NCBI GenBank assembly: GCA_963785725.1
Contig: CAWAWS010000007.1
Coordinates: forward strand, 211,186 to 275,185
Length of the DNA stretch: 64,000 bases
Reading direction: 5' to 3'
Origin: an uncultured delta proteobacterium
GTDB taxonomy: Bacteria > Myxococcota_A > Polyangia > Palsa-1104
The notes under the pieces were generated by a model. That model ran no database searches. It had not been told where the DNA came from and saw only the letters and a program-made list of their open reading frames with translations. Positions 10,727-57,700 of this stretch are shown here, in pieces (the first letter of the stretch is position 1; the number at the start of each line of letters is the position of its first letter). A program made the position numbers and the translations under genes.

Positions 10727-10731
10727 GACGG

Positions 10732-12996: not shown

Positions 12997-14184
12997 CTAA
13001 TGTCCTCCGTGACCCGGTTTGGCGCGCGGCAACGCCAGCAGCTCCGCCTTTTGCTCGACGAGATGCGGCGGCAGCTCGGCGAAGACGTCGTCGAACAGCG
13101 TGTCGACATCGGGATTCTCGAGCTCGCCCGCCTGCTTTACCGCGACGGCAATCTCGTCCGTCAATTCGCCGACGAGCCGCTCGTGCAGCGCCTCGTTCCA
13201 GATGCCGCGCTGCTCGAGGTGACGCCGCCAGCGCTCGAGCGGATCGTTCTGTTCCCACTTCTTCGGCTCGGCCGCGTCGCGATAGGCCGCCTGATCGTCC
13301 GCCGACGAATGCTCGCCGCGACGATAGGTGACCGCTTCGATCAACGTCGGTCCGTGTCCGGCGCGCGCGCGCGCGACCGCGTCCTGCATGACCGCGATGA
13401 CGGCGAGCAGATCGTTGCCGTCGACGCGAATGCCCGGCATGCCGTACGCGTGCGCCTTGACGGCGATCGTCTTGGCGGCCGTCTGCTGGCTGCCCGGCGT
13501 CGAGATGGCCCAGCCGTTGTTGCGGCAGAAGAAGATGCACGGCGCCTTGAAGACGTTGGCGAAGTTGAGCCCGACATGAAACTGCCCGGTCGAGGTCGCG
13601 CCTTCGCCGAAGTAGACGAGCGCGAGGTCGTCCTTCTTGGCGATCTTGGCGCCCATCGCCATGCCCGTCGCTTGCGGAATCTGTGTCCCGACCGGCGACG
13701 AGATCGACACGATATTCAGCCAATTAGCCGAGTGATGCACCGGCATCTGGCGACCTTTGATGGGATCGGCCGCGTTGCCGAACAGCTGATTGGTGTACTG
13801 CTCGATGCTGTAGCCGCGCCAAAAGAACACGCCCGGCTCGCGATACGACGGGAAGATCCAGTCGCGCGCCTCGAGCGCGTAGGCGCCGCCGAAGTGCGTG
13901 GCCTCTTCTCCCGTCGACGACATGTAAAAGCCGAGCCGGCCTTGGCGCTGCAGCTTCATCATGCGGTCGTCGACGAGCCGCACTTGCAGCATGCCGCGAT
14001 AGAGCGCGAGCGCGGCCACGTCCGGCACGCTGGGCGCATCGGCGCCGGGACGAATCGAGCCGTCGTCCATAAGCAGCGAGAACAGCGGGGAATCTTCGCG
14101 ATTCTCGGTGGCGCTCGGCGCTGGCTGTCCCTTCACCCGCATCGGCTCATTCCAGTCATGCCGTCGCGGTAGTAACTGCTCCAT
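12997..14184 (-). CDS. 2-oxoacid dehydrogenase E1 alpha subunit (branched-chain type)
   Basis: GEGATSTGQFHVGLNFANVFKAPCIFFCRNNGWAIST and YRRGEHSSADDQAAYR. The start is uncertain (ATG 14184, or ATG 14142 giving MRVKGQ). Confidence 0.88.
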   Translation of the reverse strand: MEQLLPRRHDWNEPMRVKGQPAPSATENREDSPLFSLLMDDGSIRPGADAPSVPDVAALALYRGMLQVRLVDDRMMKLQRQGRLGFYMSSTGEEATHFGGAYALEARDWIFPSYREPGVFFWRGYSIEQYTNQLFGNAADPIKGRQMPVHHSANWLNIVSISSPVGTQIPQATGMAMGAKIAKKDDLALVYFGEGATSTGQFHVGLNFANVFKAPCIFFCRNNGWAISTPGSQQTAAKTIAVKAHAYGMPGIRVDGNDLLAVIAVMQDAVARARAGHGPTLIEAVTYRRGEHSSADDQAAYRDAAEPKKWEQNDPLERWRRHLEQRGIWNEALHERLVGELTDEIAVAVKQAGELENPDVDTLFDDVFAELPPHLVEQKAELLALPRAKPGHGGH

Positions 14185-35293: not shown

Positions 35294-38200
35294 GTGTGGA
35301 TCGTCAAGCTGGCGCTACGCCGGCCCTACACCTTCGTCGTCGCCTCGATGCTCATCGTGCTGCTCGGAGTCCTCACGATCCTGCGCATGCCCACGGACAT
35401 CTTCCCCACGATCGACATTCCGGTCATCGCGGTGTGCTGGGTCTACACCGGCATTTCGCCGGAGGAGATGGAAGAGCGCATCGTCAGTAACTACGAGCGC
35501 GCGCTGACGACGACGGTCAACGACATCGAGCATATCGAGAGCAACTCGCTCTCGGGCATCTCGGTCGTGAAGATCTATTTCCAGCCGGGCGCGAATATCG
35601 ACGGAGCGACGGCGCAAGTCACGGCCATCTCGCAGGCGGTGTTGAAGCAGATGCCGCCCGGGATGACGCCGCCGCTCATCATGCAATACAGCGCGTCGAA
35701 CGTGCCGGTCTTGCAAGCGTCGGTGTCGAGCGAGACGCTCGGCGAGCAGGCGCTGCTCGACCTGTCGATGAACTTCTTGCGCGGTGGTCTCGCCGTCGTG
35801 CAAGGCGCGCAGATTCCGTATCCGTTCGGCGGAAAACAGCGCATCGTCATGGTCGACATCGATCCTGACAAGCTCTACGCCTGGGGAATTTCGCCGCAGG
35901 ATGTCTCCGACGCGATCAGCGCGCAGAACCTCATCATCCCCGCGGGCACGGCCAAGATGGGCGACCGCGAATACGCCGTGCGCCTCAACAGCAGCCCCGA
36001 TCTCGTCGAAGCCTTCAACGCGCTGCCGATCAAGACGGTGCGCGGCACGACCGTCTACATGCGCGACGTCGCGCACGTGCGCGACGGCTTCTCACCGCAG
36101 ACGTCGATGGTCCACGTCGACGGTAAGAAAGGCGTGCTCGTACCGATTCGGAAGTCCGGCGGCGCCTCGACGCTCGACATCGTGGCGCGCGTGCGCGCGG
36201 CGCTGCCGGGAATCTTGGCGACGTTGCCCAAAGAGTTCCAGCTGACGCTGCTCTTCGATCAGTCGGTGTTCGTGCGCGGCGCGGTCACCGGCGTCGTGCG
36301 TGAAGCGGCCATCGCCGCCGGCTTGACGGGACTTTTGATCCTCTTGTTCTTGGGCAGCTGGCGCTCGACGATCATCGTCCTCGTCTCGATCCCGCTGTCG
36401 ATCTTGGTGTCGATCATCATCCTCGGTTGGCTCGGGCAGACGATGAACACGATGACGCTGGGAGGGCTGGCGCTGGCCGTCGGCATCCTGGTCGACGACG
36501 CCACGGTCGAGATCGAGAACGTCCACCGCAACATCGGCATGCGCAAGACGTTGGTGCGCTCGATCCTCGACGGCGCGCAGCAGATCGCCGTGCCCGCGTT
36601 CGTGTCGACCACGTGTATCTGCATCGTCTTCGTGCCGGTCGTGTTCATCTCGGGCGCGGCCAAGTCGCTGTTCACGCCGCTGGCGATGAGCGTCGTCTTC
36701 GCCATGATGACGTCGTATCTGCTGTCGCGCACGATCGTGCCGACGATGATGAACTTCCTGCTCGTCAAAGAGGCGGCGTCGCATGACCAGCCGCCCAAGA
36801 CGCGCTTCGAGCATTTTCACGTCGCCTTCAACCGCAAGTTCGCGCAGCTGCAGCGCGCGTACGGCACGCTCTTGGCCGGCGTGCTCGCCAATCGCCGCCT
36901 CTTCTTCGGCGGCTTCGGCGTGTTCGTCATCTTGTCGCTCGGGCTGCTCGGGCTCGTCGGGCGCGACTTCTTCCCGGCGACCGACGCCGGCCAGATCAAG
37001 CTGCACGTGCGCGCGCCGGCCGGGACGCGCATCGAAGAGACCGAGCGCATCTTCGCGTCGGTGGAGAATACGATTCGCCAGGACATTCCGGCGCACGACC
37101 TGGCCAACGTCATCGACAACATCGGCTTGCCGATCTCGAGCATCAACACGGCGCTCGGCGATCCGTCGATGATCTCGTCGGCCGACGGCGAAATCCTCAT
37201 CTCGCTCAAGGAAGACCACCGGCCGACGGCCGAATACATTCGCAAGCTGCGCGCCGACTTGAAGAAGAGCTTTCCCTCGATCGGCTTCTTCTTCCTCGCC
37301 GCCGACATCTCGACGCAGGTGTTGAACTTCGGGCTCTCGGCGCCGATCGACATTCAGCTGGCGGGACCGCTGCCGAATCAGCCGGCGAACCAGGAGATCG
37401 GCAAGAAGCTGCGCGATCAAGTGGCGCTCATTCCCGGCGCCGTCGACGTGCACTTGCATCAGGTGGTCGCGGCGCCGGAGCTGCACGTCAACGTCGACCG
37501 CGCGATGGCCGATCAGCTCGGCTTCTCGCAGCGCGACGTCGCCAACGACCTGTTGGTGACGTTGGCGTCGAGCACGCAGGTGCAGCCCAGCTTTTGGCTC
37601 GATACGAAGAAAGGCGTGCAATACAACGTCGCGGTGCAGACGCCGCAGTACCGGATCGACTCCATCCCGTCGTTTCAGCGCACGCCGATCACCAAGGGCA
37701 CGACGAGCCAGCTGCTCGGCAACATGGCGACGATCGATCGCGGCGTCAGCCCCGCGAACATCACGCACTACAACGTCATGCGCACGGTCGACGTGCTCGC
37801 CAGCGTCGACGGCACCGATCTCGGCACCGTCGCCGACAAGGTGCAGAAGCTCGTCGACGACATCAAGCCCAAGCTGCCGCGCGGCACGAGCATCCTCATT
37901 CGCGGCCAAGTGCAGAGCATGAACGCGTCGTTCCGCGGCCTCAGCCTCGGCATCGTCTTCGCCATCATCCTCGTCTATTTGCTGATGGTCGTGAACTTCC
38001 AGTCGTGGCTCGACCCGTTCATCATCCTGATGGCGCTTCCGGGCGCGCTCTCGGGCATCGCCTGGATGCTGTATTTGACCGGCACGACGCTCAGCGTGCC
38101 GTCGCTGATGGGCGCCATCATGTGCATCGGCGTCGCCACCGCCAACAGCATCTTGCTCATCACGTTCGCCAACGAGCAGCGCGAGCTCGGCTACGACGCG

Positions 38201-38527
38201 CACGACGCCGCGCTCTTGGCTGGCATGACGCGCCTGCGGCCGGTCATGATGACGGCGCTGGCGATGATCATCGGCATGCTGCCGATGTCGCTCGGTCTCG
38301 GCGAAGGCGGCGAGCAGAACGCGCCGCTCGGTCGCGCCGTCATCGGCGGTCTCGGCGTCGCCACCATCGCCACCTTGTTCTTCGTCCCGGCGGTCTACGC
38401 TTCGTTGCGCAAGAAGGCCGTCGTGCGCTCGGAGACGCAGCGCGAGCTCGACGAGGATGACGCCATCGAAGCCGCCGGCGGGCATCGCAAGCCGCCTTCC
38501 ATCACCACTCCCGAGGTCGCCAAGTGA
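35294..38527 (+). CDS. RND family efflux transporter permease (AcrB/CzcA superfamily)
   Basis: 1077 aa. N-terminal MWIVKLALRRPYTFVVASMLIVLLGVLTILRMPTDIFP, 12-TM topology with two large periplasmic loops. GTG start with SD AGGGGAG. Confidence 0.92.
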   Translation: MWIVKLALRRPYTFVVASMLIVLLGVLTILRMPTDIFPTIDIPVIAVCWVYTGISPEEMEERIVSNYERALTTTVNDIEHIESNSLSGISVVKIYFQPGANIDGATAQVTAISQAVLKQMPPGMTPPLIMQYSASNVPVLQASVSSETLGEQALLDLSMNFLRGGLAVVQGAQIPYPFGGKQRIVMVDIDPDKLYAWGISPQDVSDAISAQNLIIPAGTAKMGDREYAVRLNSSPDLVEAFNALPIKTVRGTTVYMRDVAHVRDGFSPQTSMVHVDGKKGVLVPIRKSGGASTLDIVARVRAALPGILATLPKEFQLTLLFDQSVFVRGAVTGVVREAAIAAGLTGLLILLFLGSWRSTIIVLVSIPLSILVSIIILGWLGQTMNTMTLGGLALAVGILVDDATVEIENVHRNIGMRKTLVRSILDGAQQIAVPAFVSTTCICIVFVPVVFISGAAKSLFTPLAMSVVFAMMTSYLLSRTIVPTMMNFLLVKEAASHDQPPKTRFEHFHVAFNRKFAQLQRAYGTLLAGVLANRRLFFGGFGVFVILSLGLLGLVGRDFFPATDAGQIKLHVRAPAGTRIEETERIFASVENTIRQDIPAHDLANVIDNIGLPISSINTALGDPSMISSADGEILISLKEDHRPTAEYIRKLRADLKKSFPSIGFFFLAADISTQVLNFGLSAPIDIQLAGPLPNQPANQEIGKKLRDQVALIPGAVDVHLHQVVAAPELHVNVDRAMADQLGFSQRDVANDLLVTLASSTQVQPSFWLDTKKGVQYNVAVQTPQYRIDSIPSFQRTPITKGTTSQLLGNMATIDRGVSPANITHYNVMRTVDVLASVDGTDLGTVADKVQKLVDDIKPKLPRGTSILIRGQVQSMNASFRGLSLGIVFAIILVYLLMVVNFQSWLDPFIILMALPGALSGIAWMLYLTGTTLSVPSLMGAIMCIGVATANSILLITFANEQRELGYDAHDAALLAGMTRLRPVMMTALAMIIGMLPMSLGLGEGGEQNAPLGRAVIGGLGVATIATLFFVPAVYASLRKKAVVRSETQRELDEDDAIEAAGGHRKPPSITTPEVAK

Positions 38528-39831
38528 AGAGTTTGCCGAAGCAGGAAGCCGAGAGCGCCGAGCAGCCGTATCGCGCGCCCAAGAAGCCGGAAGCGCACGC
38601 GCACGCCGAAGAGACGTTGGAGCTGCCGGCGGCGCCGAATCCGAAGCCGGGGACGTTGGCCAAGATCATCTTCGGCGTCATCGTGCTGGTGGCGATCGGC
38701 TTCGTCGCCGGTCTCTTGCCGAAGCTGCATCAGCGCGCGAGCTTGAACGAAGAGGCGGTCACGCTGGCGACGGAGAAGCTGCGCGTGCAAGTGGCGCATC
38801 CGAGGCAGTCGGACAAGCTGACCAAGACGACGCTGCCGGGCACGGTGAGCGCGCTGCGCGAAGCGGTCATTTATGCGCGCACGAGCGGCTATTTGAAGCA
38901 GCGCAACGTCGACATCGGCGACAAGGTGAAGACGGGGCAGCTGTTGGCGCTGCTGGAGACGCCCGAAGTCGACGAGCAGCTCGGGCAGGCCAAGGCGACG
39001 CTGGAGCAGTCGAAGGCGGCGCGCGAGCAGGTCAAGACGAACCTCGAGTTCGCGCGCATCAGCTTGGAGCGCATTCGTCCGCTGACGCCGGCCGGCGTGG
39101 CGTCGCGGCAGGACTTGGATCAGCGCGAGGCCGCGCATCAGGCGGAGGAGGCGAACTTGCGCGCCGCCGACGCCGCCATCGCCGCCAATCAGGCCAACGT
39201 GCGCCGCTTGGTCGAGCTGCAGAACTTCTCGCACGTCGTGGCGCCGTTCGACGGCACGATCACGGCCCGCAACGTCGACGTGGGCGCGCTCATCACCGCC
39301 GGCAACGGCACGGGCCAGGCGCTGTTCACGCTGGCGGCGTCCGATCCGGTGCGCGTGTTCGTCTCGGTGCCGCAGAGCTTGTCGTCGACGATTCACGCCG
39401 GCGATCTGGCGACGCTGGAAGTGCGCGAGTTCCCCAACCGTAAATTCGCCGGCAAGATCACGCGCGACGCCGCCGCCATCGACGTTCGTTCGCGCACGCT
39501 GCTCACCGAAGTGCAGATTCCGAACAAAGACGGCGCGCTCTTGCCGGGCATGTACGCCAACGTGACGTTCGAGGCGACGCAGCCGCATCCGTCGCTGATG
39601 CTCGACGTCAGCACGCTCATTCAGACGGGCGACGGCACGCAGGTCGCGGTCGTCGGCAAGGACGGCACGCTGCACCTTGCGCCCATCGTCATCGAGCAGG
39701 ATTTGGGCGCCAAGATCGCCATCTCGAGCGGCGTCACCGCCGAGGATCGCGTGGTCCTCAACGCCAACGGCGACCTCCGCGAAGGCCTGGCCGTCGACGC
39801 CATTGACGCTCCGGTCGCTCCAGGTAAGTAA
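38524..39831 (+). CDS. RND efflux periplasmic adaptor (membrane fusion protein)
   Basis: TM anchor, lipoyl/barrel-sandwich segments (ARTSGYLKQRNVDIGDKVKTGQLLALLETPE), coiled-coil hairpin and beta-barrel domains. GTGA overlap with the permease. Confidence 0.88.
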   Translation: MKSLPKQEAESAEQPYRAPKKPEAHAHAEETLELPAAPNPKPGTLAKIIFGVIVLVAIGFVAGLLPKLHQRASLNEEAVTLATEKLRVQVAHPRQSDKLTKTTLPGTVSALREAVIYARTSGYLKQRNVDIGDKVKTGQLLALLETPEVDEQLGQAKATLEQSKAAREQVKTNLEFARISLERIRPLTPAGVASRQDLDQREAAHQAEEANLRAADAAIAANQANVRRLVELQNFSHVVAPFDGTITARNVDVGALITAGNGTGQALFTLAASDPVRVFVSVPQSLSSTIHAGDLATLEVREFPNRKFAGKITRDAAAIDVRSRTLLTEVQIPNKDGALLPGMYANVTFEATQPHPSLMLDVSTLIQTGDGTQVAVVGKDGTLHLAPIVIEQDLGAKIAISSGVTAEDRVVLNANGDLREGLAVDAIDAPVAPGK

Positions 39832-39834
39832 CCC

Positions 39835-41163
39835 ATGCGCACAGCTTCGTTCTCTTTAGTCCTGGTGCTCGTCGGCGCTACGACGAGCCATGCCGCCGAC
39901 AACACCACCATTCCCGCCGTGACCTCCACCGACACGACGGTTCCGCCGGTGCCCACCGACGCGCCCGAGCGCGTCTCGTTCGACGTCGCCGTGCAGCGGG
40001 CGCTGGCGCGCAACCCGCAGGTGCTCATCGCGCAGGCGGAGGTCAAGCGCGCCTGGTCGCTGCTGGAAGAGGCGCGCGCGCCGTCGCTGCCGAGCCTGTC
40101 GGCGCTCGGCTATTACCAGCGCATCGAGGGCAACCGCGGCGCGTCGGGCGTCACCGTCTTGCACGACAACGAGCTCTACGGCGCGCTCAACGTGTCGATG
40201 GCGCTGCTGGCGCCGGCGCAGTGGGCCGCGTGGGCGCACTCGCGCGACAACGTCGAGGTCGCGCGCTTGTCGGCGGCCGACGTGCGCCGCAAGCTGGCCG
40301 TCGCCGTCGCGCATACCTACCTGACGATCGTGGCGCAGCATCGCGTCATCGACGTGCAGGAGCGAGCGCGCGAGAACGCGCAGGCGCACCTCGATTACAC
40401 GCACGCGCGGTTCGTCGGTGGCGTCGGCCCGCAGCTCGACGAGACGCGCGCCGCGCAGGAGCTCGACGCCGACGTCTCGCAGCTCGAGGTCACCTACGGC
40501 CAGATCGTGCTGCAGCAAGAGGCGCTCGGCGTCTTGCTCGGCGTCAATCGCCCGGTCGACTCCGAGCTCGACGTGACGCTGGAGGCGCCGCCGCAGCTCG
40601 ACGAGGCGCTCGGCGATTCGCGCAAGTTGCGCACCGATCTGCGGCTGTCCGAGGAGCGGCTCGTGGCCAGCCAGCACCGCGTGCGCGACGACTACACCGA
40701 CTATTTGCCGTCGATCGTCGGCAGCTTCACGCCGTTCCTGTATACGCCGTCGACGACGTCGGAGCCGGGCAAAGGGTTCGTCGGTTTGTTGTCGTTGAAC
40801 CTGCCGCTCTATGACGGCGGGCTGCGTTACGGCCAGGCGCACGAGCGAGCGGCGTTGCGCGACGAGGCGCAGATCGATCACGAAGGCGTCGCGCGGCAGG
40901 TGGCGAGCGATGTGCGCGCGTCGTATGTCGAGCTGAACCGCGCGCTGCGATCGTTCGAGGCGGCGCGGTCGTCGGCGCGGCGGGCGCAGGCGGCGTTGGC
41001 GATGACGAATCAGGCGTACAAGGCGGGCGCGACGACGAATATCGAGGTCATCGACGCGGAGACGCGGGCGCGTGATGCGGATACGGCGGCGGCGCAGGCG
41101 GAGGATGCGGCGAGGCAGGCGACGATTGACCTGTTGGCGGCTAGCGGGAGGTTTCCGCGGTAG
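39835..41163 (+). CDS. TolC family outer membrane efflux protein
   Basis: Signal peptide. Two OEP repeats with typical sequences (VAVQRALARNPQVLIAQAEVKRA..., LPLYDGGLRYGQ..., YKAGATTNIEVIDAE). Confidence 0.85.
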   Translation: MRTASFSLVLVLVGATTSHAADNTTIPAVTSTDTTVPPVPTDAPERVSFDVAVQRALARNPQVLIAQAEVKRAWSLLEEARAPSLPSLSALGYYQRIEGNRGASGVTVLHDNELYGALNVSMALLAPAQWAAWAHSRDNVEVARLSAADVRRKLAVAVAHTYLTIVAQHRVIDVQERARENAQAHLDYTHARFVGGVGPQLDETRAAQELDADVSQLEVTYGQIVLQQEALGVLLGVNRPVDSELDVTLEAPPQLDEALGDSRKLRTDLRLSEERLVASQHRVRDDYTDYLPSIVGSFTPFLYTPSTTSEPGKGFVGLLSLNLPLYDGGLRYGQAHERAALRDEAQIDHEGVARQVASDVRASYVELNRALRSFEAARSSARRAQAALAMTNQAYKAGATTNIEVIDAETRARDADTAAAQAEDAARQATIDLLAASGRFPR

Positions 41164-41169
41164 GTGGTG

Positions 41170-41453
41170 TTGCGCTGCTCGCGCGGAGGCCAAGTCACGC
41201 GGGGCGGTGCGGTGGGCGCGGGTCCTGTCATCGCGAGCATCTTGTCCGTGCTCGTCTGCGCGCGCTGTTCTAGGCGGGCGGCGCTTTCGCTTCCGAGGTT
41301 GTGGTGTGAGGAGGGTGGTGCGTGATCGTGGGGCGCTCCGCCTGCGCGCGGACAAGAAGCTCGCGACGCCACCCGCGTGACGGGTCCGAGTCCCGCGTGG
41401 CTTGGCGGGGGTCTGTGGGGCAGACGATGACTGGCGGAACACGCCCCTGGACG
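41170..41453 (+). repeat. 284-bp structured repeat, copy L (inverted partner of 42184-42467)
   Basis: A hand alignment to the reverse complement of 42184-42467 gives 8 mismatches and no indels. There is nested internal complementarity: 41189-41203 with 41392-41406, and 41232-41248 with 41349-41365. Confidence 0.9.
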
Positions 41454-41569
41454 AGCCCCTTTCGACGACTGGCGGGGCAGCCTTGGATGGCGGAACAGCC
41501 TTGGGCGAGCGGCGGAGCACGCTTGGGCGCGCGGTGGAGTTGGCTGGGTTGCGACGAGCGGCGGTCGCG

Positions 41570-42070
41570 TTAGGACAGTTGCTTGAGCATCGTGGCGGCG
41601 TCGGAGACTTCGAACTTGTTGCCTTCTTCGATGTTCAGCTGCTTGACGATGCCGTCGTCGACGAGCAGGGAGAACCGCTTCATGCGCACGCCCATGCCGT
41701 GGCCGCTCAGGTCGATGTCGAGGCCGAGCTTCTTGGCGAAGTCGGCGCTGCCGTCGCCGAGGAAGCGGACCTTGCCGATGCCCTTTTCGTCGCGACCCCA
41801 GGCGGCCATGACGAAGCCGTCATTGACCGAGACGCACCAGACTTCGTCGATGCCTTTGGCCTTGAGCGCGTCGCGTTCGGCGATGTAACCGGGGACATGC
41901 TTGGCCGAGCAGGTCGGCGTGTAGGCGCCGGGAAGCCCGAAGATGACGACGCGCTTGCCCTTGGTCGCCTCGGTGACCGACACCGGCTTCGGGCTCAACG
42001 GACAAGCCTCGCCAAACTCGGTGGACTCGAACAACGTAGCCTCGGCAATCCGATCTCCCACTTTGATCAT
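41570..42070 (-). CDS. peroxiredoxin (Prx5/PrxD-like, AhpC/TSA superfamily)
   Basis: MIKVGDRI...VVIFGLPGAYTPTCS (peroxidatic Cys context)...VWCVSVND.FVM.AW. SD AAGGAG before ATG 42070. Confidence 0.88.
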   Translation of the reverse strand: MIKVGDRIAEATLFESTEFGEACPLSPKPVSVTEATKGKRVVIFGLPGAYTPTCSAKHVPGYIAERDALKAKGIDEVWCVSVNDGFVMAAWGRDEKGIGKVRFLGDGSADFAKKLGLDIDLSGHGMGVRMKRFSLLVDDGIVKQLNIEEGNKFEVSDAATMLKQLS

Positions 42071-42183
42071 TGGCTTCTCCTTGTGCCTTTCCATAAGTCA
42101 TCCCCACGCCCCATATCCACCTGATTCTTCCAAATCCGTGCGCAGCGCGCCGTTCCTCGCCAACGCGTGCGTTTCCTGTCACG

Positions 42184-42467
42184 CGTCCAGGGGCGCGTTC
42201 TGCCAGTCATCGTCTGCCCCACAGACCCCCGCCAAGCCACGCGGGACTCGGACCCATCCCGCGGGTGGCGTCGTGAGCTTCTTGTCCGCGCGCAGGCGGA
42301 GCGCCCCACGATCACGCACCACCCTCCTCACACCACAACCTCAGAAGCGAAAGCGCCACCCGCCTAGAACAGCGCGCGCAGACGAGCACGGACAAGATGC
42401 TCGCGATGACAGGACCCGCGCCCACCGCACCACCCCGCGTGACTTGGCCTCCGCGCGAGCAGCGCAA
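42184..42467 (-). repeat. 284-bp structured repeat, copy R (inverted partner of 41170-41453)
   Basis: See copy L. The outer end lies 23 bp from the gcdH stop. It is adjacent to a 17-bp tandem duplication CGCGAGCAGCGCAA(ACT/CC) at 42453-42486. Confidence 0.9.
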
Positions 42468-42490
42468 ACTCGCGAGCAGCGCAACCCCGC

Positions 42491-43654
42491 CTACTCGAAC
42501 GCCGCCAACCCCGTAATGTCCTGCCCCACGATCAACGTGTGAATATGATCGGTGCCTTCGTACGTGAACACCGACTCCAAATTACACATATGGCGTCCCG
42601 ACTGATACTCGTCGGTGACGCCGTTGGCGCCCAACAGATCGCGCGCATCCCGCGCCACGTTGCGCGCCATCTTCACGTTGTTGCGCTTGGCCAACGAGAC
42701 CTGCTGCGGCCGCGCCTTGTGCGACTCCTTCAGCTTCCCCAACCGCCACGACAGCAGCTGCGCCTTGGTGATCTCCTGCACCATATTGACGAGCTTGTCC
42801 TGCACCAGCTGGTAACCGGCGATGGGCCGTTTGAACTGCACGCGGTCCTTCGTGTATCGGAGCGCCTCGTCGTAACACGCCATCGCCGCGCCAATTGCGC
42901 CCCAGGAAATGCCGTAGCGCGCCTGGCTCAAGCATGACAACGGGCCCTTCAACCCGGTGACGCCGGGCAGGAAGCTGTCGAGCGGCACCGCGCAGTCTTC
43001 CATGATGAGCTCGCTCGTCACCGAGGCGCGCAGGCTGAACTTGCCCTCGATGTCGCGCGTCGAGAAGCCGGGCGTGCCGCGCTCGACGAGAAAGCCGCGC
43101 ACGCCGTCGTCCGTGCGCGCCCACACGAGCGCCACGTCGGCCAAGCCGCCCGAGGTAATCCAACGCTTTTCGCCGTTGAGCACCCACTTGTCGCCGACGC
43201 GCTTGGCGTTGGTGCGCAAGTCGCTCGGGTTCGACCCGAAGTCGGGCTCGGTCAGGCCGAAGCAGCCGATGGCTTCACCGCGCGCCATCTTGGGCAGCCA
43301 GCGGTCCTTCTGCGCGTCCGAGCCGTAGGCGTGGATCGGATACATGACCAGCGAGCTCTGCACCGACGCGAAGCTGCGAAAGCCCGAGTCACAGCGCTCG
43401 AGCTCCTGGTTGATGAGGCCATACGCGATCGGCCCCAAGCCCGCGCAGCCGTAGCCTTCCAAGGACGCGCCGAGCGCGCCCATCTCGCCGAGGCGACGCG
43501 GCAGCTCCTTCGGAAACGTGCCGGCGCGGAAGTGTTTGGCGACGATGGGCATGAGCTCGTCGTCGACGAAGCGGCGGAAGGTGTCGCGCACCAGGCGCTC
43601 GTCGTCGGTGAGCAGCTCGTCGAGCGCGAAATAATCGAGTCCGGAAAACGGCAT
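42491..43654 (-). CDS. gcdH: glutaryl-CoA dehydrogenase-type acyl-CoA dehydrogenase
   Basis: 387 aa. GCFGLTEPDFGSNPS, KRWITSGGLAD and YEGTDHIHTLIVGQDITG are typical of the GCDH subgroup. Confidence 0.85.
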   Translation of the reverse strand: MPFSGLDYFALDELLTDDERLVRDTFRRFVDDELMPIVAKHFRAGTFPKELPRRLGEMGALGASLEGYGCAGLGPIAYGLINQELERCDSGFRSFASVQSSLVMYPIHAYGSDAQKDRWLPKMARGEAIGCFGLTEPDFGSNPSDLRTNAKRVGDKWVLNGEKRWITSGGLADVALVWARTDDGVRGFLVERGTPGFSTRDIEGKFSLRASVTSELIMEDCAVPLDSFLPGVTGLKGPLSCLSQARYGISWGAIGAAMACYDEALRYTKDRVQFKRPIAGYQLVQDKLVNMVQEITKAQLLSWRLGKLKESHKARPQQVSLAKRNNVKMARNVARDARDLLGANGVTDEYQSGRHMCNLESVFTYEGTDHIHTLIVGQDITGLAAFE

Positions 43655-43684
43655 GCGATCTGCTTATCACATATACTTTCGAGC

Positions 43685-45865
43685 GTGCTTCGTCTCGTAG
43701 GTGTGATGGTGCTGGGCCTATGGATGGTGACGGCGGCGCTGTCGGCGTCGGCGGCGGCCAAGCCCAAGCCCAAGCCGGCGGCGGGCAAGCCGCGCTCGTC
43801 GGCGCCGACCGGCCGGCCAGCCGCGCCGGCGAGCGCGGTCGAGCGGCTCGGCCGCGGCTACAAGCTGTTCCTCGAGGGTGAATACGAAGCCGCGGTGCGC
43901 GAGCTCAAGCCCATCGATCCCAAGTCGATGCACGCGCCCGACTACGTCTTGTATCTGCTGGCGACGTCCGAGCTGCTCACGGGCGAGCCCAAAGCGGCGC
44001 GCGCGCACTTTGCGCAGCTGGCGCTGTTGCCGTCGCGCTTCACCGTGCTGGCGCGGTGGCGCATGGCCGATTGCGACTGGGACGCGGGCGACTTCGAGAC
44101 GGCGCGCAAAGAGTACGAAGCGGCGCTGCCGTCGGCGAACGACCTGGTCGATCCGGCGTTGGCGCGCTTCCGCATCGCCGAGGCGTTGGCCAAGAAAGGT
44201 CAGACGGCGGCGGCGCTGGCGATGTATCGCAAGGTCTACGTCGGTGAGCCGCTGCATCCGCTGGCGGACGTGGCGATGACGCGCCTCACCGACGGCAAAG
44301 CGGCGCCGATCACGCCCGAAGAGCGCATCGCGCGCGCCAAGAGCATGACCGCCGATCGCGCCTGGCCGCGCGCGCTCGAGGAGCTGGCGCTCGTGCCCGC
44401 CGACGTGCCGCAAGCGACGCGCGACGAAGCCGACTACTGGTTCGGCATGACCAAGTTCAAGATGCGCCGCGACTACGACCAAGCGGCGCAGAAGCTGCTC
44501 GGCCTGTGGCAGCGCCTGCCCGGCGACGAGCGCAAAGCCGACGCGCTCTTTCACGGCGCGCGCGCCTGGTCCCGCGCCGACCGCGACGACGAAGGCCAAA
44601 AGGGCTACCGCGAGCTGGTCGCGCGCTTCCCGCGCTCGAAGTCGGCGGCCGAGGCGTCGTTCTTGATCGGCTGGCTCGACTTCAACCGCGGCAAATACAA
44701 AGAGGCGATCCCCGAGCTCGAAGAGACGCTGAAGCGCTACGGCTCGTCGCAGTTCAACGATGATTCGCGCTGGTATCTCGGCTTTTCGCGCTGGCTGTCG
44801 GGCGACGTCAAAGGCGCGCTCGCCGACTTCGAGACCTTGAGCCGCATGTCGGGCCCGCTCGCCGGCGGCAAAGGCGCCTATTGGCGCGGCCGCGCGCTCG
44901 ATTCGTTGTCGCGCACCGACGAGGCCAAGAGCGTGTGGCGCGCGCTCGTGACCGAGTATCCGTTCTCGTATTACGCGCTGCAGGCGCGCTTGCGGCTGAA
45001 GGAAAAAGGCGTCGACGTCGGTCAATTCGGCGACGGCCCGCGCGGCACGGCGCCGCCGCTCGCCGCCGTCGACGCGAAGCTGTCGTCCGATCCGCTGCTC
45101 CAGCGCGTCGACGAGCTGCTCGCTGCCGGCCTCACCGTCGAAGCCGGCCTCGAGCTGCGTCGCGGCGAAGGCGAGCTCATGAAGCGCTACGGCGCGGCGC
45201 GAGCGCTCCCGCTCCTGTTCGATCGTTATCTGCGCGGCGACAACTTCAATCGCCCGCATTCGCTCGCGGAGTCCTACTCGGGCGCGGCGCTGCGCCTCGA
45301 CCCGCAGCGTGACGACGAGGCGCGCAAGTGGTGGGAGATCGTCTATCCGCGCGCCTACCGGCAGCACGTCGAGAAGTACGCGGCGACCGGTGACAACCCG
45401 CCCTATTATCTTTATACGATCATGCAGAAGGAGTCGGCTTACAACCCGCATGACGTGTCCTACGCCGACGCCATCGGCCTCTTGCAGATGATTCCGCCGA
45501 CGAGCCGACGCGTGGCTCTGCGCATCGAAGCCGCTTATACCGACGACGTCTTATATGATCCCGAAGGTAATATTCGTTTCGGCGCCTGGTATATCGGCCA
45601 TTTGTTACAGAAGTTCAAAGGCCAGATCGCGCTCGGCGCCGGCAGCTACAACGCCGGTCCGCGCGCGATGATGAAGTGGGTCAAGCTCTACGGCGCTCGC
45701 CCGCTCGACGAATTCATCGAGCTGACGCCCTATACGCAGACGCGCGAATACATGAAGAAGGTGCTCGACATCTATTCGCGTTATGTCTGGCTCTACGACA
45801 AGAAGGATTATTTGCCCGATAATAAAATCGATACTGCATTTCTCGAAAACGATATCGATTACTGA
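43685..45865 (+). CDS. soluble lytic murein transglycosylase (Slt70-like: TPR/superhelical N-domain + SLT domain)
   Basis: Signal peptide (GTG 43685 or ATG 43706). C-terminal IMQKESAYNPHDVSYADAIGLLQMIP...YNAGPRAM is the SLT catalytic domain with the Glu of ES. Confidence 0.88.
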   Translation: MLRLVGVMVLGLWMVTAALSASAAAKPKPKPAAGKPRSSAPTGRPAAPASAVERLGRGYKLFLEGEYEAAVRELKPIDPKSMHAPDYVLYLLATSELLTGEPKAARAHFAQLALLPSRFTVLARWRMADCDWDAGDFETARKEYEAALPSANDLVDPALARFRIAEALAKKGQTAAALAMYRKVYVGEPLHPLADVAMTRLTDGKAAPITPEERIARAKSMTADRAWPRALEELALVPADVPQATRDEADYWFGMTKFKMRRDYDQAAQKLLGLWQRLPGDERKADALFHGARAWSRADRDDEGQKGYRELVARFPRSKSAAEASFLIGWLDFNRGKYKEAIPELEETLKRYGSSQFNDDSRWYLGFSRWLSGDVKGALADFETLSRMSGPLAGGKGAYWRGRALDSLSRTDEAKSVWRALVTEYPFSYYALQARLRLKEKGVDVGQFGDGPRGTAPPLAAVDAKLSSDPLLQRVDELLAAGLTVEAGLELRRGEGELMKRYGAARALPLLFDRYLRGDNFNRPHSLAESYSGAALRLDPQRDDEARKWWEIVYPRAYRQHVEKYAATGDNPPYYLYTIMQKESAYNPHDVSYADAIGLLQMIPPTSRRVALRIEAAYTDDVLYDPEGNIRFGAWYIGHLLQKFKGQIALGAGSYNAGPRAMMKWVKLYGARPLDEFIELTPYTQTREYMKKVLDIYSRYVWLYDKKDYLPDNKIDTAFLENDIDY

Positions 45866-53393: not shown

Positions 53394-53482
<89 letters not shown>

Positions 53483-53561
53483 AACAAACTTGTGCGGCGC
53501 CACCAACCGCGACTTCCTCTGCTCTGCTCTGATTCCGTCGGAGGGAGAGGTTGGAGCGGAG

Positions 53562-53662
53562 GGTTTGGGCCCCGCGCGCAGTTCCGCAGGAGTTGTTTTT
53601 CGTGTTCGCGCAGCGAACGCGAAAAACGGCTCCGAGGACTGTTTGAGCACGGGGCCCAAACC
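53562..53662. repeat. 101-bp nested palindromic element between two tRNA-Ser genes
   Basis: Outer stem GGTTTGGGCCCCG (53562-74) pairs with CGGGGCCCAAACC (53650-62), 13 bp perfect. Inner hairpin 53595-53609 with 53613-53627, 15 bp (one T-G position), 3-nt loop. Confidence 0.8.
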
Positions 53663-53673
53663 CGGAGCGACAG

Positions 53674-53762
53674 CGGAGAGGGAGGGATTCGAACCCCCGG
53701 TACCCTTGCGGGTACACCTGATTTCGAATCAGGCGCAATCGACCGGACTCTGCCACCTCTCC
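53674..53762 (-). tRNA. tRNA-Ser (anticodon CGA)
   Basis: GGAGAGGTGGCAGAGTCCGGTCGATTGCGCCTGATTCGAAATCAGG...GGGTTCGAATCCCTCCCTCTCCG. Anticodon loop TTCGAAA. Confidence 0.92.
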
Positions 53763-53805
53763 AGGTGGTGCGAACGCAAAATACGGCGTCGAAACCGTAC
53801 GAAAA

Positions 53806-54276
53806 TCAACTCGATCGCTTGCGTAACTGGGCGAAGAAGTCGGTCAGCAGGGCGCCACATTCGGCTGCCAACGCGCTCTGCTCGACGACAACTTGGTGGT
53901 TCAAGCGGGGATCTTCCAAGAGGCGGTAGAGCGTTCGTACCGCGCCGGCCTTCGGGTTGTCACAGCCGAAGACGACCCTGTCGATGCGGGCGTTGACGAT
54001 CGCGCCCGCGCACATCGGACAGGGCTCTTGCGTCACATACAGCGTGGCGCCGACCAAGCGCCAACCGGCGACGGCTTTGGCCGCCTCGCGGATGGCGATG
54101 AGCTCCGCGTGTGCCGTCGGATCGGCGGCACTTTCACGGCGATTTCCGCCGCGACCCAAGACGACTCCGTCGACCACGATCACGGCGCCGACGGGCACTT
54201 CGCCCATCTCCGCCGCCGTCTTGGCCTCGGCGATCGCCAACTGCATGAGCTGCTCTTCTACAGGTACAAGCGTCAT
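53806..54276 (-). CDS. tadA: tRNA-specific adenosine deaminase
   Basis: CMP/dCMP deaminase zinc motifs HAELIAIREA and PCPMCAGAI. 156 aa. Confidence 0.92.
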   Translation of the reverse strand: MTLVPVEEQLMQLAIAEAKTAAEMGEVPVGAVIVVDGVVLGRGGNRRESAADPTAHAELIAIREAAKAVAGWRLVGATLYVTQEPCPMCAGAIVNARIDRVVFGCDNPKAGAVRTLYRLLEDPRLNHQVVVEQSALAAECGALLTDFFAQLRKRSS

Positions 54277-54289
54277 TTTCGAACTGCGG

Positions 54290-54363
54290 CGCAGCCAGAA
54301 GGATTCGAACCTCCGACCCTCGGTTCCGTAGACCGATGCTCTATCCAGCTGAGCTATGGCTGC
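54290..54363 (-). tRNA. tRNA-Arg (anticodon ACG)
   Basis: GCAGCCATAGCTCAGCTGGATAGAGCATCGGTCTACGGAACCGAGGGTCGGAGGTTCGAATCCTTCTGGCTGCG. Anticodon loop CTACGGA. Confidence 0.92.
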
Positions 54364-54390
54364 ATAATCTAATGCTTATTTTATTACCAG

Positions 54391-54477
54391 CGGAGAGGGA
54401 GGGATTCGAACCCTCGATACAGTTTCCCGTATGCCGCCTTAGCAAGGCGGTGCCTTCGGCCACTCGGCCACCTCTCC
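54391..54477 (-). tRNA. tRNA-Ser (anticodon GCU)
   Basis: GGAGAGGTGGCCGAGTGGCCGAAGGCACCGCCTTGCTAAGGCGG...GGGTTCGAATCCCTCCCTCTCCG. Anticodon loop TTGCTAA. Confidence 0.92.
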
Positions 54478-54517
54478 GATGAATGCTCGCGCATGTCGCT
54501 ATTCGATTGTCAGACCG

Positions 54518-54600
54518 CGGAGGGAGAGGGATTCGAACCCCCGGGACTTTCATCCAGCGGTTTTCAAGACCGCCGCCTTAAACCGCTCGGCCATCCCTCC
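54518..54600 (-). tRNA. tRNA-Ser (anticodon UGA)
   Basis: GGAGGGATGGCCGAGCGGTTTAAGGCGGCGGTCTTGAAAACCGC...GGGGGTTCGAATCCCTCTCCCTCCG. Anticodon loop CTTGAAA. Confidence 0.9.
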
Positions 54601-54722: not shown

Positions 54723-57700
54723 ATGAAGATCACCTGCGAGCGCTGCAGCGCTCAGTACGACCTCGACGAAAGCCGGATTCCCCCGTCGGGGATGATGATG
54801 AAGTGTCCGGCCTGCTTGCACTCTTTCGCCGTGCGACGGCAGAGCAGCTCGGGCATGCCCGCCGTGCCGCCGGCGCCGGTCGTGCAAAATCCGCCGCCGC
54901 GCCGCCGCGAGATCGAGGTCTCGACGTTCGGCGAGGATGAAGGGCCGACGGTCCTGCCGCCGCCGACGCCGGGCATGATCGCGCTCGACGATCCGGATGC
55001 GATCGATCTACCCGCACCCAAAGAAGATTTCATCGATCTGCCGGCGCCCAAAGAGCGCTCGCGCAAGCCGTCGATCCCGCCGCCGCGGCAACGGACGTCG
55101 TCGATCCCGCCGCCGTCGCGCCCGAAAGTGCCGACGCCGGCGCCGTTCGAGAACGATCACACCTACGACGAGACGGCGTTTCCGTCGGGGCCGCTGCCGG
55201 GTTTGGGGCCGGACGAGATCGATCTGCCGGCGCCCGTCGATCCAGGTCGGCGGCAGGACATCGTCGATCTGCCGGCGCCGAAGTCGGGCACGTCGCGGCC
55301 GCTGTCGTTGGCGGACGAGAACATCGATCTGGCCGAGCTGCCGGCGCCGAAAGAGCGCGGCCATCAGGTGGGCATCTCGCTCGACGCGCCCGATCCCGAA
55401 GATTTGGAGCTGCACGACTCGTTGAGCTTGGGCGCGCCGGAGCTGGAGCTGGACGCGATCGACGTCGTGGCGCCGCGCGACGATCGCCCCGAGCTGCCGG
55501 CGCCGAAGCACGAAGTGCTCGATGTGGCGCCGCGCCAAGAGACGCTCGATGTCGCGCCGCGCTTGGAGACGCAGGACGTGGCGCCGCGCAAGGACGCCTT
55601 CGAGGTGGCGCCGCGGCCGGCGAAGGCGCCCGAGCCGGCCGCCGAACGACCGCGACAGTCGCAGCCGCGCCTGACCAAAGCGCAGGCGGCCAAGGTCAAA
55701 GCCGCCGAATCCACCGACGATGAGCCGCGTCGTCGCTGGCCGCGGGTCGTGGCGGCGCTCGGCGGCGTCGTGCTCTTGCTCGGCGGCGTCGGCGTCGCGC
55801 TCGGCGTGTTCACCGGGTTCGGGCAGAAGCTCTTGCGCGGCGGCTCGTCGGCACGGCAGGAGCAGCAGCTCAACGTCGCGCGCAATCAGATGACCGACGA
55901 CACCTTGGGCGCCTATCGCAAGGCGGCGGCGGCGATGAAGTCGCTGCTCGAGGTCGACCCGACGGCGTTCGAAGCGGGCGCGCTGGCGGCGCAAGCGGAG
56001 TTGGGCGCGGCCCATCTCGGCGTCGCGGCCGAGCTGCGTAACGCCGACGCGCAGCTGGCCAAGCTCACCGACGAAAAAGCGGCGCAGCTGCCGGATGTGT
56101 TGAAGGCGCGCGCGCTGCGCTCGTCGGTGGCGGGCGCGTATCCCGACGCGCGCAACAAGCTCGGCGCGGTGTTGGCCAAGGCGCCGGCGGACTCGGCGGC
56201 GCTGGTCTATTTGGGCTGGACCGAGCTGGCCGCGGGCGATCCGGCGGCGGCCGACAAGGCGTTCGCGAAGGCGCTCGCCGCCGAGGCGTCGCGGGCGCAG
56301 GCGTTGTACGGCGACGCCGTGGCCAAAGAGCGGCTGGGCGACGTCAAAGGCGCGGGCGAGCTGTATCAGCGCGCGCAGGCACGGTCGCCGCTGCACCTGG
56401 GCGCGGCGGTCGGCTTGGCGCGCACGACGAAGCCGCCGGCGGAAGCGCAAGCGGCCGTCGAGGAGCTGATCAAGGCGCGCACGGCGACGGCGGCGCCGCG
56501 CGAATTGGCGGACGCGTGGGCGACGGTCGGCGTGCTGGCCGAGAAGGCCGGGCGTCATGACGAAGCCGAAGATCGGCTGAAGCGCGCGCTGGCGCTCGAC
56601 GCCGATCATGCGATCGCGCGCGTGGCCTTGGCCAACGTGCAGTGCGAGCTCAAGCGTTGCGCCGATGCCGTGGCGCCGATGGAGAAATTGGTGGCCGCGC
56701 AGCCGAAGAACGTCGAAGCGAAGCTGGCGTTGGCGCAGGCGCAGCTCGGCACCGGCGCCATCGCCGACGCGGCGGCGACGTTGGGCGCGGCGGCGACGCT
56801 GGCGCCGAAGTCGGCCGACGTGCTCTTCGGGCAGGCGCGCTTGGCGTTGGCGCAGCCGAAGATCGATCGTGAAGGTGCGCTGGCGAAGCTGAAGGACGCG
56901 ATCGCCGCCGATCCCAAGCTGATTCCGGCGTACATCACGGAGTCGACGACGCTGGGCGCGCTCGGTCGCGACGACGACGCCGTCGCCGCGCTGCAAGCGG
57001 CCGAGAAGCAGGCCGCCGACAGCGCCGAGCTGATGACGCAGCTCGGGGACGCCTATTTGACGCTGGGCAAGCCGGTGGAGGCGGAGATGCGTTATCGCGC
57101 GGCGCTGTCGAAGCAGCCGGACGCGCGACCGGCGCGCATGGCGTTGGGCGCGGCGCTCGAGGCCGAGAACAAGCTCGACGACGCGCGCGCCGAATACGAG
57201 CATGTGGCCCAGGATGACGCGCAATATCCGGGCGTGACCGAGCGGCTGGCGCGTTTGGCCGCCAAACAGGGGCACAAGACGGAAGCGGCGCAGCTTTACG
57301 ACAACGCGCTCAAAGAGGGCGTGCCGACGGCGGCGCTGCGTTTGGCGGCGGCGCAGCTGTTCTTGGATCCGGCGATCAATCGTCGCGACGACGCGCTGAA
57401 GCTGGCCGAGTCGGTGACGGCCGAGGACGATCGCTCGGCGCCGGCGCACCTCGTCGTGGCGCGGGCGCAGCTCGAGGCCGGTCGGCCCGATGACGCCTTG
57501 CCCGAGGCGCGGCGCGCGGCGACGCTGGCCGACCTGCCCGAGGCGCACTTCATTTTGGGCAAGGTGTTGGAGTCGATGTCCAAGCTCGATCAGGCGATCA
57601 ACGAGTACGGCTTGGCGCGGCGACCGCCCGTGGAAGCCGAGGCGTCGCTCGGTCGCGCGCGCATCTTGGTGCGCATGGGCGCGACGAAGGATGCCTTGAC

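Follow-up and report, generated by a model that had tools for sequence, protein, structure and literature searches.

Why would a bacterium keep two long, nearly identical inverted repeats around a single housekeeping gene? In bacterial chromosomes such repeats tend to be uncommon and to be lost soon, since they give rise to rearrangements. The question is raised by a stretch of 64,000 nucleotides from an uncultured delta proteobacterium of the Polyangia (contig CAWAWS010000007.1), which we call the window. In it, the peroxiredoxin gene prx is bracketed by two inverted copies of a non-coding sequence, here called the arms. This 284-nt pair stands around one housekeeping antioxidant gene and occurs in lineages that differ by 12-18% in the genes next to it. 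The differences among arms of different genomes, together with a flipped cassette in one relative, point to general homologous recombination between the arms. We consider it fairly probable that the locus is a flip-flop cassette, that is, an inverted pair of a hairpin-forming intergenic element of about 285 nt, driven by homologous recombination. The element itself is previously undescribed.

The left arm is the reverse complement of the right arm at 276 of 284 positions (97%), with no indels, and 730 nt lie between the two. By BLASTN the arms match with 97.18% identity (E = 3.5e-137), and the eight mismatches fall at positions 41205, 41279, 41294, 41363, 41378, 41381, 41436 and 41441. No third copy was found in the window, either by BLASTN or by a window-wide repeat scan, which shows no other long repeat; the next-best BLASTN matches are the arm's own internal stems (E = 0.001). 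The core of the locus is as follows.

39835-41163, plus strand: gene for a TolC-family outer-membrane efflux protein, tolC (Pfam OEP, E = 3.4e-40), with a TAG stop at 41161-41163; final gene of an RND, membrane-fusion and outer-membrane-factor efflux operon
41170-41453, plus strand: left, tolC-side arm, in the 3' flank of tolC; the element's sense strand is the plus strand here
41454-41569, minus strand: spacer downstream of prx, 116 nt
41570-42070, minus strand (longest open reading frame (ORF) to 42094): peroxiredoxin gene prx, Prx5/Redoxin type, 166 aa (Pfam Redoxin, Redoxin/AhpC-TSA, E = 5.4e-33)
42071-42183, minus strand: spacer upstream of prx, 113 nt
42184-42467, minus strand: right, gcdH-side arm, located 3' of gcdH and ahead of the prx promoter; the element's sense strand is the minus strand here
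42491-43654, minus strand: gcdH-like acyl-CoA dehydrogenase gene (Pfam Acyl-CoA_dh_N, _M and _1), co-directional with prx

The tolC stop lies 6 nt before the left arm, and 23 nt separate the right arm from the stop of gcdH. The 3' ends of both genes face the same sense of the element. This shared orientation had been claimed in the original prediction, as had the two inverted 284-bp copies with eight mismatches, no indels and spacers of 116 and 113 nt; the orientation comparison agrees with the former, and the latter proved exact. Homologues of prx number in the thousands and are mostly 166 aa long, some of them with source labels of Polyangia, Polyangiaceae or Myxococcales. One entry of the protein collection (P0131, from a 935,918-bp NCBI/ENA contig) is identical to the prx product of the window.

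Probable inversion of the prx cassette and homogenisation of the arms

Relatives of the locus were reached via the 90%-identity cluster of the prx protein, and are contigs of uncultured, Polyangia-type bacteria (numbered here with an L). Among them the locus occurs in three states, i.e., without arms, with arms in the orientation of the window (L049), and with arms around an inverted prx cassette (L050). L049 is 95.4% identical to the window over 2.7 kb and has its arms at the same sites and in the same orientation, with an arm identity of 96%. L050 is a 125-kb JGI metagenome contig (sample 3300064043), of which 20.5 kb were compared with the window. It is collinear with window positions 31137-52054 save for its positions 9642-10885, which align with window 42469-41170 in reverse. 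Its gene order is tolC (plus), prx (plus) and gcdH (minus) with intergenic regions of 425 and 398 bp, and its arms are 265 nt long, 96% complementary to each other and about 80-82% identical to the window arms. In the window and L049 prx is co-directional with gcdH, and in L050 with tolC. That recombination between the arms would invert the cassette had been predicted beforehand, and L050, as one metagenome contig, carries the flipped cassette between collinear flanks. The expectation that relatives would share the arms around prx is likewise borne out by L049 and L050.

The arms themselves record a history of exchange. Within a genome they are 96-97% identical, versus about 80% between genomes (window versus L050). 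In a six-sequence alignment, there are 37 sites at which both arms differ together by genome between the window and L050, and 0 sites that group the arms by side. This 37:0 pattern indicates repeated arm-to-arm gene conversion or, less parsimoniously, a separate duplication in each lineage. For the window and the closer L049, genome-specific and orthologous sites stand at 2:2. The two orthologous sites, 41378 and 41381, show some arm-specific differences to be older than the split between the window and L049.

These observations can be accommodated by a simple mechanism. One copy of the element sits directly behind the tolC stop and the other directly behind the gcdH stop, with prx and its own promoter between them. 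The arms are long and alike enough to pair and recombine by general, RecA-type recombination; homologous recombination works well on arms of such length and likeness (265-284 nt, 96-97% identity). Non-crossover outcomes, i.e., gene conversion, would keep the arms of one genome near-identical while lineages drift apart. Crossover outcomes would turn the 730-nt prx cassette, and prx would then lie downstream of gcdH or of the efflux operon, the latter as seen in one relative. In either orientation the prx promoter would be preceded by a sense arm and the gene followed by an antisense arm, and only the upstream neighbour would change. Since the structure is symmetric, flipping is probably near-neutral for prx expression.

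It could be argued that no inversion has taken place, and that the orientation of L050 is an arbitrary or wrong choice of a short-read assembler while the arms undergo gene conversion alone or go back to an independent duplication in each lineage. In L050 the two arms have identical stretches of 126 and 102 nt in common, which are above the usual k-mers (the longest run in the window is 73 nt), and other assemblies do break inside the arms, with the L049 contig starting within its right arm. However, the L050 arms have three differences and strongly diverged inner ends within 128 nt of each other, and 150-nt reads and read pairs can phase these. The L050 contig is also 125 kb in length and otherwise collinear, and the 37:0 pattern by itself already implies such recombination. 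We regard this explanation as improbable. Because the arms can be phased with 150-nt reads, the orientation calls are credible.

A gene and its promoter that lie between inverted repeats and are found in both orientations could also suggest a programmed inverton, phase-variable and turned by a site-specific recombinase of its own. Several features speak against this. The repeats are about 10 times longer than those typical of invertons, and no serine or tyrosine recombinase domain is present within 10 kb on either side in the gene table of the syntenic L050; the Pfam listing for the same genes contains no recombinase or transposase domain of any kind. Moreover, the promoter travels with the gene, so that a flip does not switch prx off, and arms that diverge between lineages yet are alike within a genome are the signature of general recombination. 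An inverton is therefore hardly credible here, and we retain the flip-flop cassette as our explanation.

The hairpin and its possible roles

Each arm can also fold on itself. Three features of the arms are listed first.

41189-41406, plus strand: long imperfect hairpin within the left arm, from minimum-free-energy folds and the consensus structure
41262-41284, plus strand: terminator-like stem-loop followed by TTTCGCTTCC, from a motif scan, with a mirror copy at 42353-42375 on the minus strand
42454-42470 and 42471-42487, minus strand: outer end of the right arm, duplicated in tandem (17 nt; CGCGAGCAGCGCAAACT / CGCGAGCAGCGCAACCC), from the repeat scan and the BLASTN alignment

The outer stem of the hairpin pairs 41189-41203 with 41392-41406, and the inner stem pairs 41226-41251 with 41346-41371 (26 nt, 85%). 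The fold energy is -162 kcal/mol on the plus strand (z = -1.6) and -132 kcal/mol on the minus strand (z = -3.2). The apical block GTGAGGAGGGTGGTGC is invariant among the arms compared. A consensus structure of five arms has 74 pairs, with standard pairs in 97.8% of the cells. Between the window type and the L050 type, six pairs are compensatory, with a substitution in each partner, and only three or four pairs fail to form. Four of the six compensatory pairs are in the inner stem, where CGCGAGC/GCTCGCG has become CGTATGC/GCATACG. Controls in which the partner strand was slid gave 0-2 double changes and 38-54% pairing. The original prediction of a long imperfect hairpin in each arm therefore agrees with the folds, and its stem is kept through the six compensatory pairs. 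The main stem holds on the opposite strand too: the antisense strand gives 62 pairs at -91.9 kcal/mol, the sense strand 74 pairs at -112.7 kcal/mol. The sense strand is the G-rich strand, and its single-sequence z-score is weaker than that of the antisense strand. In addition, arm identity between the window and L050 is 80-82%, compared with 69-77% at the four-fold degenerate sites of gcdH, tolC, prx and two efflux genes. From these comparisons we infer that the hairpin of the arms is under constraint.

Other functions for the sequence were examined. An Rfam 15 scan of 40800-42800 at E <= 1 gave a sole match, HOTTIP_1, at 23.3 bits versus a gathering score of 50, which lies outside the arms and is due to chance. 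ARAGORN found no tRNA or tmRNA in the arms. The arms are also non-coding, with six-frame translations that are arginine- and proline-rich junk. Coding potential of the AGGAGG-preceded ORFs at 41322-41573 and 42067-42315 was rejected, since they are not conserved in L050; the only Shine-Dalgarno-preceded ORF of the left arm starts with GTG at 41322 and is lost in L050.

What, then, could the hairpin do? In our proposed mechanism it would act in cis at the RNA level, as a 3' end, terminator or insulator for the tightly packed neighbour genes. Our guess is that, most plausibly, it could serve as a transcript-end mark or insulator at a place where the convergent prx and tolC were originally 24-38 bp apart. 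Alternatively, the hairpin may be needed for the element's own propagation. The arms are evidently not essential to prx, because the close relatives L017, L051 and L052 are without arms. A more far-reaching version would have the arms as a selected, structured cis-element, an RNA or DNA hairpin that insulates genes, the inverted pair as a recombinase-free switch of the prx neighbourhood that runs on general recombination, and the armed and armless states as a long-lived polymorphism. We give this version a slender chance. If it were true, prx would move between the neighbourhoods of the efflux operon and of gcdH, with standing heterogeneity in its read-through response as the result, and armed and armless alleles would be held as a long-lived polymorphism across Polyangia lineages.

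The geometry of the arms also permits a different role at the RNA level, in which a gcdH-to-prx read-through transcript forms a duplex of about 280 bp enclosing prx, and processing of the RNase III type couples prx to read-through or stress. The predicted energy of the inter-arm duplex is -689 kcal/mol versus -271 kcal/mol for two separate hairpins, and in the minimum-free-energy fold of a 1327-nt read-through RNA, 280 of the 284 bases of the upstream arm pair with the downstream arm. On these models, a 284-bp RNA duplex enclosing prx is thermodynamically possible, and the arrangement that it needs is kept in two diverged lineages. Nevertheless, prx's own promoter lies inside the cassette and downstream of the sense arm, so that the normal prx mRNA would carry the antisense arm only. 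Each arm folds on itself during transcription, close relatives do without any arms, and there is no match to an Rfam family. A regulatory RNA of this kind is thus quite unlikely, and a cis-acting hairpin in a flip-flop cassette is the reading that we carry forward.

Armless relatives and the origin of the arms

The relatives without arms give a view of the locus before, or apart from, the element. In L017 the gcdH-prx spacer is 72 bp and the spacer between the convergent prx and tolC is 24 bp; L051 has 89 and 38 bp at these places. A gcdH-prx spacer of 71 bp is found in L052-L057, where prx and tolC are separated by an unrelated ORF of 90 aa. In the armless relatives prx keeps its place between gcdH and tolC and carries the same promoter block. 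Filled sites (L049, L050) and empty sites (L017, L051, L052-L057) are therefore both found at orthologous positions. The arms appear to have been added to an ancestrally compact gcdH-prx-tolC locus and to be polymorphic now among related Polyangia lineages. Since a locus of this compactness leaves no other place for insertion outside a gene or promoter, both arms abut stop codons.

The ORF between prx and tolC (L052:1280-1552, also in L053-L056) encodes 90 aa without a Pfam domain, and it sits at the junction where the window has its left arm. L052 had been considered as a one-armed intermediate; this was ruled out, as its 309-bp prx-tolC spacer holds the unrelated ORF. The prx-tolC junction seems to be an insertion hot spot, to judge from the inserts compared.

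The spacers can be traced to the native locus in part. The approximately 70 nt nearest the prx start form a promoter and leader block, AAAAATCAAGTGG...CTTATGAGCA...AGGAGA, which is common to the window, L017, L051, L048, L050 and L052. Because this block occurs in armed and armless states alike, the 113-nt upstream spacer is mostly native prx promoter region. Its distal part holds a dyad, ACGCGTG-N10-CACGCGT, at 42163-42186, which is kept in L049. On the other side of the gene, about 25 nt beside the prx stop match the entire 24-nt prx-tolC spacer of the armless L017. The downstream spacers of the window and L050 are not alignable, and that of L050 has repeats of its own at a spacing of 72 nt. 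In the window, the inner arm end is echoed by three degenerate direct repeats of about 18 nt at 41470-41527, of which 41470-41486 and 41488-41504 are 88% identical and the third copy is weaker. The dyad and the degenerate direct repeats downstream of prx were both noticed in the original prediction, and both were recovered.

At the outer ends, the similarity of the arms reaches both stop codons when the 17-nt duplication is counted as one indel. L050 has a 63-nt duplication at the same, outer end of its tolC-side arm (L050:9581-9704). Such tandem duplications at the outer ends suggest slippage at the base of the hairpin.

How the arms arrived is a separate matter from what keeps them alike. 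A mobile origin is possible, either as an element resembling a MITE (a miniature transposable element with inverted repeats) or through a single duplicative inversion. This leads to the rival view that the arms are selfish, i.e., two non-autonomous, MITE-like or palindrome-associated copies without host function, inserted on either side of prx or formed by duplicative inversion, with the hairpin kept because the transposition machinery needs it. The presence/absence polymorphism at orthologous sites among close relatives would fit this view. So would a non-coding unit of 284 nt with subterminal inverted repeats (GCCAAGTCACGCGGG / CCCGCGTGGCTTGGC), the tandem duplications at the arm ends (17 nt in the window, 63 nt in L050), and the different insert, the 90-aa ORF, which another lineage holds at the same junction. 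Replicative intramolecular transposition, or duplicative inversion, leaves two inverted copies around an inverted segment, and would explain why exactly one gene is bracketed and why the inverted state exists.

On the other side of the ledger, neither arm has a target-site duplication, and the repeated unit has ends, TTGCGCTGC... and ...CCCCTGGACG, that do not match as inverted repeats. Neither the 64-kb window nor the 20.5 kb of L050 holds a third copy, pattern scans of genomes and metagenomes (which had little power) gave no match, no ORF-called copy turned up among billions of predicted proteins, and no transposase lies within 10 kb. In both lineages the arms occupy exactly the same two sites, and this speaks for a single ancient event and against active mobility. 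The selfish explanation is possible but rather doubtful in our opinion.

The arms were also compared with the known element classes. At 284 nt and non-coding, the arms are within the 50-500 bp of a MITE. Terminal inverted repeats of the MITE type are absent, as the homology runs 19 and 47 nt beyond the 15-nt blocks 41189-41203 and 41392-41406. A target-site duplication is likewise absent (left flanks GTGGTG / AGCCCC, right flanks GCGGGG, plus the 17-nt duplication, / CGTGAC), though an ancient insertion could have lost it. Tn3-type elements have 38-bp ends of the form GGGG...TAAG. Ends of this type, as in a TIME-COMP, were not found: there is no GGGG...TAAG and the outer flanks are not direct repeats. 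The sequence GGGGGTCTG at 41407 was rejected as such an end, since it faces inward and has no TAAG 38 nt on. That prx is the passenger of a composite transposon was also rejected, given that the gene has the same place and the same promoter block in armless relatives. REP and REPIN sequences are palindromes of 20-40 nt; they have a conserved 5' GTAG, a high copy number and a RAYT transposase. This class was rejected, as the unit is 284 nt and the GTAGG at the window arms is the stop codon plus G; it is not kept in L049 (TAAGC) or in L050 (TAGCC, TAGTC).

As to the number of copies, the original prediction had set its system-level reading against a generic, high-copy element scattered over the genome. 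The element has two copies in the 64-kb window and two in 20.5 kb of L050. An nhmmer profile of five arms found no diverged extra copy in 355 kb of sequence, the window and L050 included. Among GTDB genomes, the pattern RTCGYGAGCWTCTTGTCCGYGC gave 15 loci, all matches of pattern length only; the pattern is not kept in L050, so this search had low power. In JGI metagenomes, the two subterminal repeats with a gap gave nothing, in a search that could find near-identical copies only, and a 21-mer gave 30 loci of pattern length only; the 21-mer is absent from the L050 orthologue, itself from JGI, so that again near-identical copies alone were within reach. A distant BLASTN search with the arm had no match in the plasmid collection. 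Of two open antisense frames of the arm searched against predicted proteins, one gave nothing and the other a single biased hit without a passing stretch. The idea of a scattered high-copy element is therefore answered in part: no other copy exists in the sequence searched, and the wider scans were of low power. If the arms were one family among many in these large genomes, the locus would become an ordinary MITE story.

Judged by gcdH identity, the armless L017 and L052 fall with the window and the armless L051 falls with L050; the armed state is therefore patchy. Between the window and L049, prx is identical at 85 of 85 four-fold sites (99.2% of nucleotides overall), and tolC at 93.1% of such sites. 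This contrast suggests that the prx cassette has recently been exchanged, or has swept, between lineages, and it is a hint that armed and armless alleles may be exchanged by recombination in the flanking genes.

Several points weigh against a recombining cassette with a constrained hairpin, and we set them out together. For arms to occur patchily across both gcdH clades, either both must have been lost several times, or they were gained more than once, which is unlikely at identical sites, or alleles were exchanged. The 37:0 pattern would also be expected if each lineage had duplicated a single ancestral copy independently. The inversion is based on one metagenome contig, L050, whose 126-nt identical run exceeds common assembly k-mers; we see a small chance of an assembler orientation error there. 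For the hairpin, the fold z-scores are modest (-1.6 and -3.2), the compensatory changes are essentially one lineage contrast, and correction at the DNA level within a palindrome could mimic selection on the stem. The terminator-like motif is weak, as the same scan did not detect it in L050.

The wider neighbourhood is given for completeness. The two genes ahead of tolC in its operon are these.

35294-38527, plus strand: RND gene (Pfam ACR_tran)
38524-39831, plus strand: membrane-fusion gene (Pfam HlyD_D23)

Beyond the core, a lytic transglycosylase gene (SLT/TPR; longest ORF 43331-45865, plus strand) overlaps the 5' part of gcdH by 324 nt (43331-43654). Its homologue in L050 is called 52 nt beyond the gcdH start, and the start in the window is probably further downstream. 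A tRNA cluster at 53396-54600 (minus strand) has four tRNA-Ser (gga, cga, gct, tga) and one tRNA-Arg (acg). Four tandem 27-nt units (GATGTGGCGCCGCGC...) at 55494-55615 are probably a 9-residue repeat in a coding region, and the direct-repeat blocks at 9978-10289 and 13400-13711, with about 71% identity and 3422 nt apart, look like paralogous gene segments. Among the relatives, a 1-kb forest-soil contig (L016:176-976) has a predicted 266-aa protein, P0001, which matches the window prx twice with about 78% nucleotide identity each and is apparently a tandem or fused double peroxiredoxin.

Comparison with known systems

The locus can be used as a natural case for the rates of intrachromosomal gene conversion and inversion in Myxococcota. 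It also allows one to ask whether flips are a population heterogeneity that is hidden by short-read assemblies, and what role long hairpins behind stop codons have in GC-rich, tightly spaced genomes. Its relation to systems described before is best seen class by class.

Invertons have short repeats and a nearby invertase, and their flip alters expression. The locus is like them in that a segment between inverted repeats occurs in two orientations. It differs in its long repeats, in having no recombinase nearby, and in that the promoter moves with prx.

ERIC/IRU, Correia/NEMIS and REP/BIME sequences are present in tens to hundreds of dispersed copies of 35-155 nt. Like these, the arms are non-coding, imperfect palindromes behind stop codons in narrow intergenic gaps; they stand at some orthologous sites and are missing from others, and can form RNA hairpins of a kind that may act on the ends of mRNAs. 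Unlike these, only the locus-specific 284-nt pair is known here, and there is no match in Rfam or the collections searched. Palindromic intergenic repeats that are transcribed with their neighbour genes have been reviewed (PMC3184786).

TIME-COMPs and integron mobilization units are composites bounded by two MITE copies (PMC13367494). The resemblance is that two non-coding copies of about 250-290 bp, possibly inverted, bracket a gene. In contrast to those composites, here there are no Tn3-type ends and no target-site duplication around the arms or the whole unit, and prx is a resident gene.

The closest likeness is to flip-flop regions, of which plastid inverted repeats are one example. Insertion sequences can also invert by recombination between their terminal inverted repeats (PMC3004938), a region of yeast chromosome XIV that flips and flops is bounded by inverted repeats (PMC9731477), and the palindromes of the human Y chromosome are long inverted repeats with homologous recombination and concerted evolution (PMC3723533). 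The present locus has long, similar inverted repeats, concerted evolution of its arms (37:0) and both orientations, the second from one assembly. As in the flip-flop regions, the repeats are homogenised within a genome and no dedicated recombinase would be needed. Unlike the examples cited, the arms are not part of an insertion sequence, an rRNA operon or a gene family. What sets the prx locus apart is that its arms are 284 nt, that they enclose one resident housekeeping gene, and that each arm is a hairpin with compensatory evolution.

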